A stretch of DNA of 64,000 bases, taken from positions 128,001-192,000 of the forward strand of contig JAHQWK010000001.1 in the NCBI GenBank assembly GCA_029856145.1, read 5' to 3'. Position 1 is the stretch's first letter. The number at the start of each line of letters is the position of its first letter. Positions 30,467 to 45,423 of the stretch are shown piece by piece. The position numbers and the translations under genes were made by a program. A model generated the notes under the pieces. It searched no databases. It worked only from the letters and a program-made list of their open reading frames with translations, and was not told the DNA's origin. This DNA is from Promethearchaeia archaeon. GTDB taxonomy: Archaea; Asgardarchaeota; Lokiarchaeia; Sigyniarchaeales; SOKP01.

Positions 30467-31096
30467 ATGAAATCAATGAATGCTAAAGACACTGAAAATG
30501 AAATTGAGAAACTATCACGTATGCTAAGTAAGATTCAAAATCTTTACTACAAGAAAAAAGAAGAACTTGAAGAGGTAAAATCAGAGATAAATGAATTAAG
30601 AGATATTTTAAATCTCTTAAATTCTCTTATATCAAGTAAGTCATTTCATAGCGCAGACGAAATTTACTCAAAAGTATTAATTGAAAAAGCAGATAAGCCA
30701 ACTGAAGAAGAATATTTCGTTAAAGAAATATCAAAAGAAAAAGTTGAAGGAACTAATATAAAAAGAAAGATTTTTTCTAAAAGTAAAGGTAATGATGAGG
30801 AATTATTATGTATTTTAAATTTTTATGATTTTAATAGGGTTGAGATTAAATTTATTGGCCCAGAGAAGAGATCAATTAAAGAAACTTCTGAGATTTTCAT
30901 CCGTACTTTTTTAAAAGGAGCTCTTATTAAGATTAAAGAAACTAATCAAGATATGAGTTTGAATTATGAATACTTTAAAAATTCTGAGTTAATTGAACAT
31001 ATAATAATTTCTCAATTAAAATCTATAGATGAATATGATTTAATTACGTTGAAAATGAGAGAACTTTTAGCAAGTGAAGTCTCTTCTGATATTTGA
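30467..31096 (+). CDS. Hypothetical protein with an N-terminal coiled coil
   Basis: 209 aa ORF; heptad-rich N-terminus. Confidence 0.7.
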   Translation: MKSMNAKDTENEIEKLSRMLSKIQNLYYKKKEELEEVKSEINELRDILNLLNSLISSKSFHSADEIYSKVLIEKADKPTEEEYFVKEISKEKVEGTNIKRKIFSKSKGNDEELLCILNFYDFNRVEIKFIGPEKRSIKETSEIFIRTFLKGALIKIKETNQDMSLNYEYFKNSELIEHIIISQLKSIDEYDLITLKMRELLASEVSSDI

Positions 31097-31210
31097 TTTA
31101 GTAAGTTTTATAATAAAAGGTTGAATAAATTTATTTTAAATCTATTAAAAATATTAAGATTTTTTGTATAAGAAATTCCAATTAAATAAAAAACATAATT
31201 TTTAAAGAAA

Positions 31211-31978
31211 ATGATAAAAAGAAAATATTCAATTTTAATGGTTTTAAGTATTATTTTAATTTCTTTATCACTCCAAAGTATAATTTTTGTTTCTGGGACT
31301 AAAGATACAATTACAGATCCTGAGAATGATGTTTACAAAGATTTTGTAAATCCTAGTGATTATTTTGATGAAATTGATATTGTTAAATTTGAAGTCGAGG
31401 ATCAAATTGGGAATCAAATTATTAATTTGACCGTTGCGGGTAATTTGAGTGATTGGGGCGGATACATCACTCCAGCGTATAAACTTGGTGAGGTTTTTTT
31501 ATTTGAAAATTTGGATTACGATTACTATAAAGCAAATCAAAACTTCACATATCCTTATTACAAAGTTTCATATCAAAATTGGACTGGGTCAATAAATTTT
31601 GATGTCTTTTTTATTAGGTATCTAACTTATAGTAGTGTTAGAGAATATTGGACCGGTGCTGGTTATTCTACTGATAAAAACTTTGCGGAATCTATCGGTA
31701 ATGGCTCAGGTAGCGTAATTACAGCAAACATTTCAAAAACGGATTTTGAAATCAATGCTACTACTACATATTTTGCTCGTACTTGGGTTACTACACAAAA
31801 GTTGGTAGGTGAAACTATATTCATACATTTCTATTATGACTATGCCCCTGACCATTTTAACCCATATAAACTACCTGGTGGTATTCCCGGTTATGAGATA
31901 GGTATCTTTATTAGTTCTATGATCGGTCTTTCGATAATTATAATAATAAAACAGAAAAGAAAAACAAATCAAAAATAA
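31211..31978 (+). CDS. Secreted/surface protein with a C-terminal sorting signal (Loki-CTERM/PGF-CTERM-like)
   Basis: Signal peptide; several NxT/S sequons; GIPGY + TM + basic tail KQKRK. Confidence 0.75.
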   Translation: MIKRKYSILMVLSIILISLSLQSIIFVSGTKDTITDPENDVYKDFVNPSDYFDEIDIVKFEVEDQIGNQIINLTVAGNLSDWGGYITPAYKLGEVFLFENLDYDYYKANQNFTYPYYKVSYQNWTGSINFDVFFIRYLTYSSVREYWTGAGYSTDKNFAESIGNGSGSVITANISKTDFEINATTTYFARTWVTTQKLVGETIFIHFYYDYAPDHFNPYKLPGGIPGYEIGIFISSMIGLSIIIIIKQKRKTNQK

Positions 31979-32247
31979 TTAAATTTCCTTTTTTTTTTAA
32001 TTTCAAATACGAATTTGCTAATTATTTGATAAATTTAATATTAAAAAAATTACACTAGCATCCATAAATTCTATAGATTAACACAATTTTTGGTAATTTT
32101 AATATACTTATTTGAATATAACCATATCTTTTTCTGTCTGCAAAAAATTATATTGAGATAATATATTGTTTAATTAAAATAGGAAAAATTAATTATACAG
32201 CAATTCATATTTATTTTAACCAATTTACCATATGGAATACATTAACA

Positions 32248-33060
32248 ATGGCAAAGAAAAAATCATGGCTCCAAATGCCAGTAATCCACTCAAAATTTCA
32301 TGATGAAAAATTAGAGAGTGTTTTAATTAAAAAATCTTTAGAATTTTTAACTGGTGAAAGAGGTGAAGCGCCTTCCTTCCTATTTCTTTCAGGGGCTTTT
32401 TTTGATGTGAAATCATTTGCATATTCTGGATTAAGAGCTTGGAAGGGTGCTGTAAAGCCTTCAGAAGCTAATGGAGGAAGAAGACCAGTTTTAGAAGCAA
32501 CATTTGCTTCATTATCAGTTTATTTAAGCTCATTATTAGCACTACAATCAGATTTTTATTTTGCATATGATGAAATTAAAGATATCTTAATAGAAAAGAA
32601 AAGAGAAGATCTCTGGACTATTGTCTCAGAAAAACTGCCATTTATTTCTATACCTCCAAAGGAAATGTATGGGTCGCAAGTATCTCCTATCTCTCCATAT
32701 TTTGTAATTAAACAAGAGGAAGATCTAATTTTAGGAGAAATTTATCCTTCGGCATATTTATCTCAAGTTATTAGGAATATAAAGACAAGATTTTTTGTTT
32801 TTTTTCAATATCAAGGATATTCTGCTTTCGGATTCTTTAATGCAATACCAGAACTTGCAAAATTTGGTTTTAATGAGCAGCCAAACGATTTTAATGGAGA
32901 ACCTACTGGAGAGAATTTAATTAAATTTTCAAAAAATGTAAAGAACGTAAAGGAAATTTTAGTAGCACTTATTCATGCTCATAATAACGCTTTACTTGAA
33001 CAATTTTTAATACCTGATTATGAATTACTATTAAATAAATTATTAGAAGGTGAAGTTTAG
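32248..33060 (+). CDS. Hypothetical protein coupled to the downstream GTPase
   Basis: 270 aa; 3-nt gap to the next ATG. Confidence 0.75.
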   Translation: MAKKKSWLQMPVIHSKFHDEKLESVLIKKSLEFLTGERGEAPSFLFLSGAFFDVKSFAYSGLRAWKGAVKPSEANGGRRPVLEATFASLSVYLSSLLALQSDFYFAYDEIKDILIEKKREDLWTIVSEKLPFISIPPKEMYGSQVSPISPYFVIKQEEDLILGEIYPSAYLSQVIRNIKTRFFVFFQYQGYSAFGFFNAIPELAKFGFNEQPNDFNGEPTGENLIKFSKNVKNVKEILVALIHAHNNALLEQFLIPDYELLLNKLLEGEV

Positions 33061-33063
33061 GGG

Positions 33064-33693
33064 ATGGTAAATATTGGACTCCTGGGGGATGTGAGTGTTG
33101 GAAAAACTAGTATCCTAAGGTTATTCGTGAGATATTTGAAAAAAGGTGATATTGAAAAAGTTAAAGGTGGGATAAAATGTTCAGTTGTTAAAGCGGATTT
33201 CTCTGGAGAAGCCACAGTTCCGGGAGGAGAAAAGGAGGATTCTCTTAACGAAAAAGAAACTAAAACAATCCATCCAAACCGAATTGTGTTTAGAGAAGAC
33301 ACAACAAACAGAGCGCATACAATTTTCGCACCTGGTGGAGATAGAGCTCGTGCCGTTGTGAAGATGGGCATCATAACAATTTCCCGTATTGCAACACAGA
33401 TTATAGCCGTATTTTCCCTCGATAGAGACCTAACAACTCAATTTGAGTTTTTCAATGATGTTAGGTTTTTTCCAGATAAAATTTATGTCTGTATAAATAA
33501 AATCGATTTGGTTGAAGGTGACAAAGAGAAAAAGCTTAATGAGGTGAAAGTGCAAATTAATGATTTCTTTGAAAAAAGAAAGATAGCTATTAATGATACT
33601 TTCATAACCTGTGGTGAAACCATTGAAGGATTTGAAGATGTTGAAATATATAATAACCAAGTCGCAGAAATGATTTTAGAAATTACTACTTAA
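33064..33693 (+). CDS. Divergent small GTPase-like P-loop protein
   Basis: GDVSVGKTS (G1), TKT, NKID (G4); G3 appears replaced by APGG. Confidence 0.8.
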   Translation: MVNIGLLGDVSVGKTSILRLFVRYLKKGDIEKVKGGIKCSVVKADFSGEATVPGGEKEDSLNEKETKTIHPNRIVFREDTTNRAHTIFAPGGDRARAVVKMGIITISRIATQIIAVFSLDRDLTTQFEFFNDVRFFPDKIYVCINKIDLVEGDKEKKLNEVKVQINDFFEKRKIAINDTFITCGETIEGFEDVEIYNNQVAEMILEITT

Positions 33694-33727: not shown

Positions 33728-34243
33728 CTACTTTCTCAACTTTAAAGCAGTTTTTAGAAAAAGCTTTTCTAAATCTATTAGATACCCAATTAAAGGAGTT
33801 AGGCTCACCTTATTCAAATTCTTTTCAATTGTGACAAATCCCATTCTTTTTAATTCTTTAATATCTTCTAAAACTCCTTTTTTTTTTCTTATATCTTTGA
33901 TTTTTTGAATTGTAGTTTCCCCGGAACTATTAAAACAACATATTAAGGTACAAAATAATGTTGCTGCTAATCTAGGGTTTCCATTAAATGGATTTGCTGA
34001 TATAATTTCATTTGTTTCTGGATCGAAAGAAATATACCAATATGAGTTCAGAGGGTTAAATCTAATTTGAAGATTTAAAGGCTCAAGATAATTAGATAAA
34101 TTATTTATTAAATTTTGAAAATAAATCGACTTATTCTTATCTTTAACATTTAAAGCATTAAGAATTTCTCCTTCAGTAGCTCCTATCTTAGATTTGTATG
34201 TTTTTCTACTTAATAAATACATCAAAACTGTCAATTCATTCAT
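33728..34243 (-). CDS. Kite-like (ScpB/Nse1-Nse3/JetB-type) tandem winged-helix subunit
   Basis: Last gene of the SMC operon; NLSNYLEPLNLQIR resembles kite WH-A; second WH-like ELKRMGFV...LTP. Confidence 0.6.
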   Translation of the reverse strand: MNELTVLMYLLSRKTYKSKIGATEGEILNALNVKDKNKSIYFQNLINNLSNYLEPLNLQIRFNPLNSYWYISFDPETNEIISANPFNGNPRLAATLFCTLICCFNSSGETTIQKIKDIRKKKGVLEDIKELKRMGFVTIEKNLNKVSLTPLIGYLIDLEKLFLKTALKLRK

Positions 34244-34249
34244 AGTGAT

Positions 34250-34906
34250 TCATCTCTCTTCTAAATATAAAAAATTTGATTCTTTTTGAAATTTAATTTT
34301 CCCCAATTGGAGTAGATGTAAAAGATATACGAAATATTCAAAGAGTTTTATTTGATCATGTTCATCTTCAAAAATTTCGTCATAAGAACACGGTAATTTG
34401 CTTTTAATTAAATCAAAAAAAGTCATCATTTTTTCAGTAAATTTCTGTTTGGGTATTTCTAATAAAAAGTTTGCTTTAAAATCTATTTTATCAATAGGTT
34501 CAATTATCAAAGGTTCCTTTTTCTCATTAACCAATTTATCTTTAGACGATTCAAGAAATTTTAAAGAAATTGCATCAACATTAAAAGGAGCTCTCCAGCA
34601 ATCATCTAATAATTGATGAATTTCTAAATCATTTGGATTTGTTTTTAAAAAATCGATAAATTTCTCTTTATTATCTAAAAAGTCTAGAAATATTCTTAAT
34701 TCTTCAAATTTCTGACTGAGAAGATGAAAGGCACTCTTATAAGTCATAGAATATTTGTTTAAGTTAAAGATATTAAGTGAATCTTTTAAATTCTCAAAAA
34801 TTGGCACTAATTCTATATCTAAAAGAGAAATCTCTCCGGAAAGGACTCTTGTTTTAATAGTTTCAATCATTTTATTTATTTCTTCAGAGAAATCTTTGTA
34901 TTGCAT
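34250..34906 (-). CDS. Kleisin (ScpA/Nse4-like)
   Basis: ISLLDIEL at the N-terminus; SYDEIF...FVYLLHLLQLGKI kleisin C-terminal WH; directly downstream of smc. Confidence 0.75.
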   Translation of the reverse strand: MQYKDFSEEINKMIETIKTRVLSGEISLLDIELVPIFENLKDSLNIFNLNKYSMTYKSAFHLLSQKFEELRIFLDFLDNKEKFIDFLKTNPNDLEIHQLLDDCWRAPFNVDAISLKFLESSKDKLVNEKKEPLIIEPIDKIDFKANFLLEIPKQKFTEKMMTFFDLIKSKLPCSYDEIFEDEHDQIKLFEYFVYLLHLLQLGKIKFQKESNFLYLEER

Positions 34907-34918
34907 TTTTATTGAATC

Positions 34919-37900
34919 CTATTTAATCTTTATAATTTTTGGTTTAAATATGGAAGAAATTTCTTTTTTTCCTACTCTTGCTATCCCGATTAGTTTTTCT
35001 GCAAGCAAGAATAATGAATTTGAAGATTTTGGTAAGAACATAAATAACTGAATCGGATTTTGCTCTAATGTTGATTTAATTAATTGATATACTACTTCTG
35101 AATTCTTTTCATCTAAAAACATCCCGGGTTCATCAAGCATAGAAAGTGCAGAAGGCTTAATTTCTTGCAAAGATAAGATCAAGCATATTGAAATAAGAGA
35201 AACCTGCCCTCCGCTTAACGCAGTAAAAGATTTTAATTGCTCTTTTGAGGTCGCTGCTTTAATATCAACGCCTAAGTTTTCAAAATCTCCTATTAATCCA
35301 AGATAACAATAAGATTTAATCTGAGAATCTTCAAATTTTTGATTAACCCTCTTTTGGAGATTATCTAGCAAGACACTAAATTTTTGATAATATGTTTTTT
35401 CCATTTTATTTTCTGTTTTCATTGCTGCTTTAACATCTTTCTCCAAGTTATTTTGATTTTTTGAGATTTCCTTAAGAGATGTTAATATCTGGTCTTTCTC
35501 AATCAGAATAGAATCTTCAACATCTAAATATTTGAGTAATTCTTTATCAATTTTAGAAATATCGGTTTTAATTTCCTCTATAGAACGAATTTTAATTATT
35601 TTTTCTGAGATTAAAGGACCTATTTCTGAATTAATTCTAGCTAAATCACTCTTTTTTGATTCAAGATCTTGATTATAAGAGGTTAACTTGATATTTTCTT
35701 GCTCATAGTTTAAGGTTATTTGAATATTCTTCTTCTCTAAATCACTCTTTTTGTTTTTTAATAATATTATTTCTCCTTTTAAATCAGCAATTTCATCTTC
35801 AGTTATTTTAATTTCCTCTTCCACATTTTCTAACTGACGATATATATTAAATGCCGTTTTATCTGCTTTCTGAAAAGCTTCTTTTTTTGTTTCATGCTCT
35901 TTTTGTATTGAATTCTTTTCAAATGTATGTTTATTTAATTTATCTTTTACTTCTTTTAGAATTTCTAAATTTTCACTTAATTTTAAATCCCATTTTTTCT
36001 TATCTTCATTGAGGAAAGTCAATTCATTAGGTATTTCTTTAATCCTGTCATTCCACTTGAAAAATTCTGGATCTGTTTGAGATTTTAACTCTTTAATTTG
36101 ATAATCATGTTCTTTAATTTCACTTTTAAGGTCTAAATTGATATTTTCTAATTCATGCATTTGATTGTATAACTGATTCTTTTTTGATGTAATTCTTTGT
36201 TTTTGGTTAAAATTGTAGAGGAGATCATTGAAAGACTCTTTTTTTTTAAATGTATCTTTTTGTATTGTATCTAATTTGGCTTGTTCAACTCTTAATTCTG
36301 AAATGGTATCATTTAAAGACTTTATTTCAGCTTCTAATACCTTGGATTGCTCTTTTTGAGTACCAGCACTTAATAATCCTTTTAATCTTTTTAAATACGG
36401 TGTTTCAAAGACATATTTATAAGAAATTATTTGTTCTCCCTTTAATGTTACACATTTTCCTTTGAAATTGAGTGTTTGATAGATTTGTCTCCCTGAGTGG
36501 TAATCACTTACAACAAGGCAATTTTTTATTTTTGAATAAATAACTTTTTTAATATCAATATCATCATCAATGATTTTAATTAATTCAGCTAAATAACCAA
36601 CCACATCAGTAGCAGAAATTTTCATAAGGGGTGTAATACTTATATTTTTAGGAAGATAAATATTACAGTATGCACCATATTTATCTTTTAGTCTCTTTAA
36701 CAAGTTTAAGGTATCCCAATCGTTAGCTACAAAACTATAGAGCAATCTTTCACCTAAAACTGATTCTATAGCATAGCTTAACTCATCATTATATTTTAAA
36801 TAATCAATAATAGGCCCCTTTACTTTTAATCCTCTTTTTTTTATCTCATCTTTAAGAATAGTTATACTTGAAGGGAGAATTACTCGTCGTTCTCTAAGCG
36901 AAGCCTGTAATATCTTTAATTTCTTTAATTTTTTAGATTTTGTGAAATCTAACTGCTTTATTTCGGATTCAATTTCAAATAATCTTAATGATGCTCTTTT
37001 CAGTTCTCTATCAAATTGAGTTATTAGATTTTTGGAGGGATTTTCTAAAAACCATTTATTTTTTTCTAATTTGTGCTCGATATCTTTAAAACTTTGAAAA
37101 AGCTGATTAATCTCATCATTAAAAACCTTTATTGATTTCTCATTCTCTTGGATTTTTGATAATCTTTCTTTTTTCTCAAGATTTATTTGATTGAATTTAT
37201 CAAGAAGTTCCCTATTTTGCTTTATTTTTTTTATTAATTGGTCCTGTTCAGTTATTAATTTATCAATATGTAATTCTGCATTTTTAGTTTCCTTTTTTAT
37301 TGCTTTTAATTCGTTTTCCATACTACTTTTCTGTTTCTCGAAATTATCAATTAATCTATTGAATTCCTTAATCTTTGCTGATAGCTCGTCTAACTCTTGT
37401 TTTGCTAATATTTTGTCTTTTTGCCAATTTTGAATTTTTGCAGCTAAATCTTTCTTTTTATAACTTAGCGCCCCAACTTCTTTTGAAAGTTTATTAATGT
37501 TTAATTCCTTATCTGAAATTTTATTTATTAATGCGTTTATTTCCTTATCGGAAATTTCCTTTTTCTTCTTAATTCCATCTAATACAGATTTAACATTTTT
37601 AATTATCTCTTCAATATTTATAATTTCTTTCTCTAAGCGATCTCTATTGGCCCATAAGAGCTCATCAGTAAATTTCGTTTTAATATCTAACAATTTATGC
37701 TTTTTTTCTAGGCGCTCCAATTTAGGATTTAATAGCTCCAAGCTAATATTTAATGTGTTTTTTCTACTTTTTAATGATTGAAGGTTATTGTTTAAATTTA
37801 GTACATTAGTTTTTTGTTGTAAAATTTCATCTCTCAACTCTTTTAATCCAATACCTTCCTCAAGAAAAGTACATAATTCTGTTGGTTTTAAATTTTTAAT

Positions 37901-38380
37901 AGCATCAATTTTCCCCTGGCTAACAATCGCAAACTGATTATCTGGATTGATATTTAAATCAGAAATTAATTTCTGAATATCTTGAGCTGATATTTTTTTG
38001 AAGTCATTATCACTCTTTCTTTGAATATTGAAATATGGAGATTGCCCCCTAATAACATATCTTCTTATTTTTATAATTTCTTCCACATTTTGAATATGAA
38101 CCTCAACCATTGCATGATTTTGTCTATTTCTAATGAAATTAGACCATTTTTTATATCGTTCATCTCTTTCATTACTCCCTAGAGCAAACTTAATTGCTTG
38201 AAATACAGAAGTTTTCCCACTCCAATTTGGGCCTACAATAATCACGAATTTTGATTTACCGAAATCAACTTCATCCTTCTGGAAAGATAAAAAATTTTCT
38301 AAAATTACTTTTCTAATGAAAATTCTTTTATTTTCCATTGAATTGATTTCATTTTTATTTGTTCGTGATCTAGAAGCCAA
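34919..38380 (-). CDS. smc: SMC ATPase, Smc5/6-related archaeal type
   Basis: Walker A GPNWSGKT, Q-loop VSQG, coiled coils, central hinge VKGPIIDYL...AIESVLG, signature LSGGQ, Walker B MLDEP. Confidence 0.93.
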   Translation of the reverse strand: MASRSRTNKNEINSMENKRIFIRKVILENFLSFQKDEVDFGKSKFVIIVGPNWSGKTSVFQAIKFALGSNERDERYKKWSNFIRNRQNHAMVEVHIQNVEEIIKIRRYVIRGQSPYFNIQRKSDNDFKKISAQDIQKLISDLNINPDNQFAIVSQGKIDAIKNLKPTELCTFLEEGIGLKELRDEILQQKTNVLNLNNNLQSLKSRKNTLNISLELLNPKLERLEKKHKLLDIKTKFTDELLWANRDRLEKEIINIEEIIKNVKSVLDGIKKKKEISDKEINALINKISDKELNINKLSKEVGALSYKKKDLAAKIQNWQKDKILAKQELDELSAKIKEFNRLIDNFEKQKSSMENELKAIKKETKNAELHIDKLITEQDQLIKKIKQNRELLDKFNQINLEKKERLSKIQENEKSIKVFNDEINQLFQSFKDIEHKLEKNKWFLENPSKNLITQFDRELKRASLRLFEIESEIKQLDFTKSKKLKKLKILQASLRERRVILPSSITILKDEIKKRGLKVKGPIIDYLKYNDELSYAIESVLGERLLYSFVANDWDTLNLLKRLKDKYGAYCNIYLPKNISITPLMKISATDVVGYLAELIKIIDDDIDIKKVIYSKIKNCLVVSDYHSGRQIYQTLNFKGKCVTLKGEQIISYKYVFETPYLKRLKGLLSAGTQKEQSKVLEAEIKSLNDTISELRVEQAKLDTIQKDTFKKKESFNDLLYNFNQKQRITSKKNQLYNQMHELENINLDLKSEIKEHDYQIKELKSQTDPEFFKWNDRIKEIPNELTFLNEDKKKWDLKLSENLEILKEVKDKLNKHTFEKNSIQKEHETKKEAFQKADKTAFNIYRQLENVEEEIKITEDEIADLKGEIILLKNKKSDLEKKNIQITLNYEQENIKLTSYNQDLESKKSDLARINSEIGPLISEKIIKIRSIEEIKTDISKIDKELLKYLDVEDSILIEKDQILTSLKEISKNQNNLEKDVKAAMKTENKMEKTYYQKFSVLLDNLQKRVNQKFEDSQIKSYCYLGLIGDFENLGVDIKAATSKEQLKSFTALSGGQVSLISICLILSLQEIKPSALSMLDEPGMFLDEKNSEVVYQLIKSTLEQNPIQLFMFLPKSSNSLFLLAEKLIGIARVGKKEISSIFKPKIIKIK

Positions 38381-38401: not shown

Positions 38402-39652
38402 TCATTTACCAAACGCTTGTTTTATTAGATCTACCCTCTTTTTAGCCTTCTCTAAGTTTATTTGTGCTTTGTTTGGAGAATCATTTAAAATAAATGGATA
38501 TCTTGCTAACATTTTCATATCATTATCCTCCAACGGCTCTTTTTTATTTAATTTATCAATAATAATTGTAAGTTCTGTATAATTCTTAGAAGCCGCATCT
38601 TCATATAATTGATTTAGCATGAAGTCTGAAATTCGTGATTCTCGAATTCCATTAACAAAATCCCTAATATCTTTGATATCTTCTACTTTTTTAAATATTT
38701 GGGTCGGAATTTTTTCATTATTTTGATGAATCTCTGCCTCTAACTCAATATTTGAGTTTTTTTCTGAATTTTGAGTCATAGAATTAGGAATATATTCACC
38801 CGAAACAATCATATCAATCAAAACATCGGTGATTTCATTGCTCATTTCATTCAATTCTGAATTTAAGAAATGTTTGAATATTCCTACTTTCAACAATTGC
38901 AAAATGTCTTTAACTTCCCAATTTTCTGTATAATTTACGATATCATTAATATCGAAGACTATTTTCGGGTTTTTTTCTAAAAAATCTTTCAATACAGTTT
39001 CTCGCTCTATTCTATTCAATAATGGGACTTTAATAAAAAGATCAAAGGTAGAATATATTTTATTAGACACACTTTTAATGTCTTGAATCTCATAATTTAT
39101 CCAAACTAAAATTAAATTAGAGTCAATAAATTTATAATCAAAACTCTTGTTTTGCCAAGCATTTAGAAAAACTTCTAATAAACTTTTATTTTCAAATTTT
39201 TGTCTGAATACAGGTTGTTGATTAATCAATAATACTTTTTTTTCCTCAACTTTATCAGGATCTCTCGTATCCGTTTCAGTTTTCTCTTCTTTTTTTCCAT
39301 CTTTTCCAAAAGCTTCTAATATTGAAATAAAACTTTTTAAAAATTTATTAGGATTCTTAAGAAGTTCAATATCGTTAAATTCAATTAAATCTAAGTAGTA
39401 ATTTTTAGTAATTAGTTTGATATAATCTAGTATATCCGTTCCGAGATTAAGATTAATTAAAATGGCTCCTTTTGGCTCTATATAACCATTTAAAGTTGGA
39501 TCGTCATGATTAGTTAACATAGCCTTGAGAAAATTAATAATATCATTATATTTATCCCGATAGAAAATATCTTCTTTATTAATATTAATTTCTGAAGGTG
39601 AAATTACCTTAAAATACTTTGAAAATTCCGGAATGTCATTTAATTCTTTCAT
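38402..39652 (-). CDS. Degenerate AAA+ (CDC48/PAN-like) protein lacking Walker motifs
   Basis: PKGAILINLNLGT in place of PKG.LLYGPPGTGKT; FDLFIKVP..NRIER..VLK and TENWEVKDI match the AAA lid region. Confidence 0.6.
   Translation of the reverse strand: MKELNDIPEFSKYFKVISPSEININKEDIFYRDKYNDIINFLKAMLTNHDDPTLNGYIEPKGAILINLNLGTDILDYIKLITKNYYLDLIEFNDIELLKNPNKFLKSFISILEAFGKDGKKEEKTETDTRDPDKVEEKKVLLINQQPVFRQKFENKSLLEVFLNAWQNKSFDYKFIDSNLILVWINYEIQDIKSVSNKIYSTFDLFIKVPLLNRIERETVLKDFLEKNPKIVFDINDIVNYTENWEVKDILQLLKVGIFKHFLNSELNEMSNEITDVLIDMIVSGEYIPNSMTQNSEKNSNIELEAEIHQNNEKIPTQIFKKVEDIKDIRDFVNGIRESRISDFMLNQLYEDAASKNYTELTIIIDKLNKKEPLEDNDMKMLARYPFILNDSPNKAQINLEKAKKRVDLIKQAFGK

Positions 39653-44208: not shown

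Positions 44209-45423
<1,215 letters not shown>

Follow-up and report, generated by a model that had tools for sequence, protein, structure and literature searches.

Archaeal operons in which an smc gene is followed by genes for a kleisin and a kite have already been described as SMC5/6-related (10.1101/2024.01.07.573240; PMC8665677). In P. syntrophicum, van Hooff et al. assigned genes 495-497 to this SMC5/6-related type and genes 810-808 to a condensin-related type, and they were unable to assign Nse5/6 to any known family (10.1101/2024.01.07.573240). Dead AAA modules kept as structural parts are also known, for example the D1 modules of Pex1/Pex6 (PMC5070193). The window analyzed here, 64,000 nucleotides of a Promethearchaeia archaeon (contig JAHQWK010000001.1, positions 128,001 to 192,000), contains an operon with the same gene order as the published one. 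However, whereas the published operon has three genes, this Asgard operon carries a fourth, AAA-type, gene at its head.

The head gene (38402..39652, minus strand) encodes a pseudo-ATPase of 416 aa, made of an AAA module (residues ~5-290), a variable linker (~291-338) and a three-helix C-terminal domain (CTD). It is followed on the same strand by a non-canonical SMC of 1153 aa with a hinge (34919..38380), a putative kleisin of 218 aa (34250..34906) and a putative kite of 171 aa with a winged helix (33728..34243), the four co-oriented genes being separated by 21, 12 and 6 nt. The SMC starts with TTG, 21 nt past the end of the pseudo-ATPase gene, and a GAGGT motif is located 3 nt ahead of this codon. 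The 218-aa protein had no match in Pfam and is called a putative kleisin because of its position and because van Hooff et al. made this call for the corresponding gene of P. syntrophicum. The kite call is based on its orthologues, among which 2/27 match SMC_ScpB (best E 1e-6). A sigma-70 promoter scan of the locus, with a model unsuited to archaea, gave chance-level results. Also, three genes converge on the operon (30467-33693), coding for a small GTPase (209 aa), an orphan of 270 aa and another protein of 209 aa, and this trio is conserved throughout the Loki family of the source genome.

Close homologues of the 416-aa protein are found in Promethearchaeota/Lokiarchaeia. As a single sequence it had no match in Pfam or PDB; a profile of 46 family members matched p97/Cdc48 with E~3e-34, and PF00004 was matched by 16 of these members. 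The AlphaFold model (pLDDT 80) retrieved p97, Msp1 and Vps4 in Foldseek (E~1e-7). Using VIA-align, classic AAA proteins were aligned over residues ~5-297 with Z 13-15 (best Z 15.4, rmsd 3.8, 250 aligned), CBASS TRIP13 being the joint top row. By fold, the pseudo-ATPase is a member of the classic AAA clade, with a P-loop alpha/beta domain and a helical lid, and the family profile, the model and the Foldseek matches confirm the AAA fold recognized in a preliminary description of this DNA. The Cdc48/VAT architecture, with an N-domain and two tandem modules, is absent: the protein has a single module. The source genome has three complete Cdc48 genes elsewhere. The closest similarity of the family is to Cdc48; in the AAA tree, which like all our trees was a quick search with SH-aLRT support only, it falls outside the Cdc48/PAN group on long branches, and Cdc48 and IetA-like origins are not separated. 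A search for longer or fused forms, which is a weak test, gave one match, P0365, apparently an unrelated multi-AAA protein.

The catalytic positions were read from an alignment of the pseudo-ATPase with the D2 module of the genome's own Cdc48 (all coordinates below are on the minus strand). In Walker A (residues 67-75, 39428..39454), GKT is replaced by D73-I74-L75, and in Walker B (residues 140-145, 39218..39235), DE is replaced by N144-Q145. In the second region of homology (residues 197-204, 39041..39064), the first arginine finger is absent and the second is replaced by T202. The alignment thus bears out that Walker A, Walker B and the arginine finger are lost, as had been read from the letters alone. 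In the lid motif (residues 242-250, 38903..38929), V247 takes the place of the Gly of "GAD", which in active AAA proteins is part of the lining of the nucleotide pocket. Position 74 is occupied by I, F, L or V in 94 of 102 non-redundant homologues. The sensor-1 Asn (N186) is present in the source-genome copy, yet it is kept in just 35 of the 102. D204 (91/102) and W245 (98/102) are retained, and together with R217 and the CTD they are conserved in the family. A true Walker A was detected in 1 of 250 homologues (P0186), the other regex match lying off the P-loop. Judging from these motifs, the Loki pseudo-ATPase probably binds no nucleotide.

The CTD (about residues 343-416, 38405..38626, minus strand) forms three helices with pLDDT 92, so the helical C-terminal domain of the preliminary description is real. 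No relatives of the CTD were found by PDB profile, Foldseek, VIA-align (best Z 4.8) or Atlas, which does not in itself prove a new fold. The CTD is the most conserved portion of the pseudo-ATPase. Mean identity reaches 45% in the CTD, compared with 50% in the SMC N-head, 27% in the kleisin and 23% in the large AAA domain. The dN/dS ratio is about 0.14-0.25 for the whole pseudo-ATPase and about 0.03-0.11 for the CTD, and purifying selection is strongest in lid and CTD. Even the Jordarchaeales copies, shortened to 271-276 aa, still contain both. In view of the identity and the dN/dS of the CTD, and of the conserved D204, R217 and W245, the pseudo-ATPase is a maintained pseudoenzyme and not a decaying gene.

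A maintained CTD could serve to bind DNA, the dead AAA module oligomerizing and the CTD recruiting SMC or autoregulating the operon. The pseudo-ATPase gene opens the operon, Lys and Arg abound in the last CTD helix, and the C-terminus of the Hel and Borr copies described below looks by eye like a helix-turn-helix after a coiled coil. However, the Loki CTD has no HTH fold match above noise (PadR and LysR rows of VIA-align, Z about 4) and its homology to the Borr C-terminus is not significant, so that we consider a DNA-binding or regulatory factor of this kind improbable.

At a threshold of E 0.01 or better, with a few doubtful matches near the limit, the CTD profile matched 217 of 400 Asgard genomes, nearly always in single copy, in the Loki order, Thorarchaeia, Jordarchaeales, Baldr and family f28. 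The dead AAA gene is a single-copy gene present in most genomes of its lineages, among them the cultured P. syntrophicum (DSAG12_00496) and a complete Loki genome of 6.04 Mb (G315). In 140 of 141 loci, the non-canonical smc comes directly after it, at a median distance of 17 nt, and the one other locus stops at a contig edge; these loci come from about 119 different genomes, and related genomes among them are not independent. No copy away from smc was found among the 141 loci, and all the loci located via SMC alone (9/9) also have the gene. In four genomes with a kite and no CTD match, the operon reaches the contig end. In G144, a family member that is 98% complete, neither CTD nor kite was matched, which fits a loss of the two together. 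The position just upstream of smc is constant in at least five Asgard lineages, while the other flanking genes vary. Thus, neither of the outcomes that would have spoken against the preliminary description, no AAA fold in the predicted structure or homologs not linked to the SMC genes in other genomes, was observed.

Outside these lineages, no CTD was found in 301 genomes of a Bathyarchaeote's phylum, no upstream AAA gene in 20 TACK second-SMC operons, and none in the inspected non-canonical operons of Njord, Heimdall, f14, f19 and f26. Since it is missing from the TACK operons and from those of Njord and Heimdall, the dead AAA gene is an addition in part of Asgard and not a core component of every SMC5/6-related complex. 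The many SMC5/6-related operons that lack it would suit a co-regulated neighbour with a function of its own, serving other AAA rings as a scaffold or dominant-negative subunit, for instance, with no physical link to SMC. Such a neighbour would hardly be expected to stay adjacent to smc across lineages as other flanking genes change, nor to have no copy away from smc among the fetched loci, and we give this explanation little credit.

Other genes beside these operons were recorded in the Hel, Freyr, Njord, Heimdall, f14 and f26 loci L080-L088, L102-L105, L108, L117, L118, L129 and L130. In Hel, Freyr and Njord, non-canonical SMC operons are bordered by genes of ThiF/E1-like, UFC1-like, JAB-like and RING-like type. 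In Njord and f19 (L102:2452-3834, L103, L105), the kite is followed by a primase large subunit and a ThiF gene, beside a ribosomal protein cluster, and in Heimdall, f14 and f26 by a Cys-rich zinc-finger gene reminiscent of the Nse1 RING. In Thorarchaeia (L035:13334-13720, L041, L045, L065), a gene of about 120 aa with a zinc ribbon and a winged helix comes after the kite.

The SMC of the operon is distinct from the canonical-type one, whose smc-scpA-scpB operon lies on a separate contig of the source genome (C20). The window SMC scored 193 against TIGR02169 (cut-off 729), and its Walker A, Q-loop, signature and Walker B are intact. Its H-loop carries a Pro in 78/78 orthologues, as in the TACK second SMCs, and this Pro motif is a feature of eukaryotic Smc5/6. 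In head trees, which contained no eukaryotic SMC sequences, the window SMC joins the TACK second SMCs (SH-aLRT 89) and is separated from canonical SMC (97), and its gene tree roughly tracks lineage. In raw similarity to the head, Pyrococcus-type Smc (E 1e-32) ranks above Smc5/6 (1e-19 to 1e-12). In P. syntrophicum, the orthologous smc (plus strand) and a 1498-aa smc (minus strand) are 323 kb apart in opposite orientation, and the gene upstream of the orthologous smc is DSAG12_00496. This locus fits genes 495-497 of van Hooff et al., the match being made by spacing, orientation and locus tag and not by gene identifier. The operon therefore matches the published one, and its SMC5/6-related label is taken from van Hooff et al., our own similarity search not favouring Smc5/6. 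As protein names, "AAA" and "Cdc48" are absent from the main and supplementary text of that study (10.1101/2024.01.07.573240).

SMC length varies widely among these genomes. The SMC of the AAA-led operon type is about 832 aa long in Freyarchaeum (L080-L084), with the hinge kept, the TACK second SMC is 580-690 aa long (L203-L222), and some Loki genomes have an additional SMC of about 1200 aa. At 1483 aa, the canonical-type SMC of the source genome (C20:73511-81209) is of unusual length, and the gene before it (396 aa) resembles Cdc6/Orc1 by eye.

An AAA gene is also found directly before smc-kleisin-kite in Freyarchaeum/Jordarchaeum, Helarchaeales and Borrarchaeum. These Freyr, Hel and Borr copies keep Walker A, whereas it is lost in the Loki, Thor, Jord and Baldr copies. 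Their Walker B reads DN, EN, DD or ED (DN, EN, DD, ED or DP over all the Walker-A-keeping copies), the pore-loop aromatic is absent, and there is one arginine finger at most, which remains in Freyr and in a single Hel copy. Similarity to the CTD is weak for the Freyr C-terminus (E about 1e-4) and not significant for those of Hel and Borr, so that orthology of the Hel and Borr copies to the dead AAA gene is based on position. The SMC heads of Hel and Borr (L085, L088, L090, L091) group beside canonical SMC despite their Pro H-loop, which might reflect a slower rate of evolution or the replacement of the gene. In P0186, a copy from a Helarchaeales-labelled MAG, the CTD is complete (E 5e-27), Walker A is intact and the gene order is vWA-AAA-smc; by combining the CTD with an ATP-binding motif at the same position, this copy ties the ATP-binding and dead forms together.

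Fully active relatives are also met before SMC genes. In the third SMC operon of Harpocratesius (L101:2824-9626), a fully active IetA-like AAA precedes the SMC, and kleisin-like and kite-like genes are present. A similar non-canonical SMC comes after a fully active IetA-like AAA in Borrarchaeum (L106:6048-10107), the two SMCs being 1057-1063 aa long. These arrangements hint at the ancestral state. We hypothesize that an active single-module AAA entered the SMC operon in an Asgard ancestor, that hydrolysis and pore loops were lost first and ATP binding later, and that the gene would have been retained because lid and CTD form a binding surface. The series from intact Walker A to fully dead copies offers a clean case of pseudoenzyme origin. 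Also, the source genome has eight co-oriented genes at C18:42121-51042, including an active IetA-like AAA (369 aa) that is sister to the L101 AAA, two coiled-coil genes and a kite-like gene of 169 aa.

These relatives raise the idea of a Wadjet- or Lamassu-sort defence operon, with the dead AAA as a regulator akin to IetA or TRIP13. Models of IetA (E 4e-38) and TRIP13 are matched by the Freyr orthologue, an active IetA-like AAA leads the third SMC operon of Harpocratesius, and CBASS TRIP13 shares the top VIA-align row. Nevertheless, the operon has no nuclease or effector gene, PADLOC gave no match for the pseudo-ATPase (P0001), the kleisin or the kite, and the dead AAA gene is single copy and present in most genomes of its lineages, beside an SMC whose tree roughly follows lineage. 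A role in defence thus appears very improbable.

The preliminary description also proposed that the pseudo-ATPase might partner an active CDC48/PAN-type ATPase. While the inactive AAA fold and the tight linkage with the SMC operon (140/141 loci) have strong support, this partnership found none: the PAN gene of the window (44209-45423) was rejected as a linked partner, as PAN is not near the dead AAA gene in any of 39 orthologous loci. A MoxR (AAA_5) and vWA pair is better supported than Cdc48 or PAN. These two genes come next upstream of the dead AAA gene in 48/49 non-Loki loci, and they adjoin the operon in Thor, Jord, Baldr, f28 and one Njord genome (L035-L050, L093, L199). The pseudo-ATPase could accordingly be an adaptor for a separate active remodeller, MoxR AAA plus vWA or, less likely, Cdc48, to which it would deliver the SMC ring, or some other substrate, to be taken apart or turned over, and it need not then be a stable SMC subunit. 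The pair is co-oriented with the operon in Jord, Baldr and the P0186 locus, it is kept elsewhere in the source genome (C17:19846-23306; MoxR AAA of 575 aa, vWA of 571 aa with an HExxH motif), and the Hel and Freyr operons have ThiF/E1-like, UFC1-like and RING genes at their flanks. However, under a crude lineage split, it is adjacent in just 3 of 82 Loki-type loci, it is divergent in many Thor loci, and it is absent from the inspected Freyr, Hel and Borr loci. Moreover, when MoxR and the operon are apart, the dead AAA gene remains with smc and not with MoxR. A remodeller adaptor is therefore a possible, though unlikely, explanation.

The reading that we prefer, and to which we give an even chance, is that the nucleotide-free pseudo-ATPase would belong to the Asgard SMC5/6-related SMC-kleisin-kite complex as an accessory subunit without catalytic activity, serving as adaptor or loading factor. 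Gene order alone makes a role as loader, adaptor or regulator plausible, linkage indicating co-expression and not binding, and kin loci not being independent. The surface formed by lid and CTD may dock on the SMC complex and control its loading or release, the ATPase activity being supplied by SMC, and the dead AAA protein would thus hold, by analogy, the role of the unrelated Nse5/6 in eukaryotes. Evolutionary rates are equal across the three genes compared (r about 0.97), an outcome expected from shared ancestry alone, and such gene-distance correlations were set aside as confounded by ancestry. A complex prediction with the pseudo-ATPase, two SMC head halves and the kleisin scored 0.00, which is evidence neither way. 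A bolder form, which we find doubtful, is a four-subunit SMC5/6-related complex in Asgard, where a domesticated, nucleotide-free AAA unfoldase would act as a dedicated loader/unloader coupling the ring to the MoxR-vWA remodeller. If true, this would add a new type of SMC regulator, found in the lineage from which eukaryotic Smc5/6 arose, and intermediates of its decay would still be living today.

Asgard archaea are the closest microbial relatives of eukaryotes. As to how Smc5/6 came by its regulators, the conserved fourth gene of the Asgard operon provides a first candidate accessory factor on the archaeal side. No description of the dead AAA gene was found in the open-access literature searched, and the head gene of this operon appears to be real, conserved and undescribed. 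SMC loaders such as Scc2/4, ParB and Nse5/6 have folds unrelated to the pseudo-ATPase, Nse5/6 being alpha-solenoids. Any likeness to them is possibly one of functional analogy, as non-ATPase factors regulating SMC loading.

By its fold, the pseudo-ATPase resembles Cdc48/p97/VAT, Msp1, Vps4 and PAN, with which it shares the alpha/beta domain and the lid, but it differs from classic AAA proteins by the absence of N-domain and pore-loop aromatic and by the added CTD. Like IetA and the TRIP13-like protein of CBASS it is a single module, with a second region of homology that lacks the PG insertion of Cdc48 and PAN. Unlike the pseudo-ATPase, IetA and TRIP13 are active and accompany a protease toxin or HORMA proteins, and no S8 protease or HORMA neighbour was found within the window. 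Wadjet/MksBEFG systems include the Toprim nuclease JetD/MksG, whereas none of the four genes of the Asgard operon encodes a nuclease, and the window operon gave weak coiled-coil matches to JetC. Finally, dead modules of the Pex1/Pex6 D1 type sit within an active double-ring protein, while the Asgard pseudo-ATPase is a stand-alone single module.
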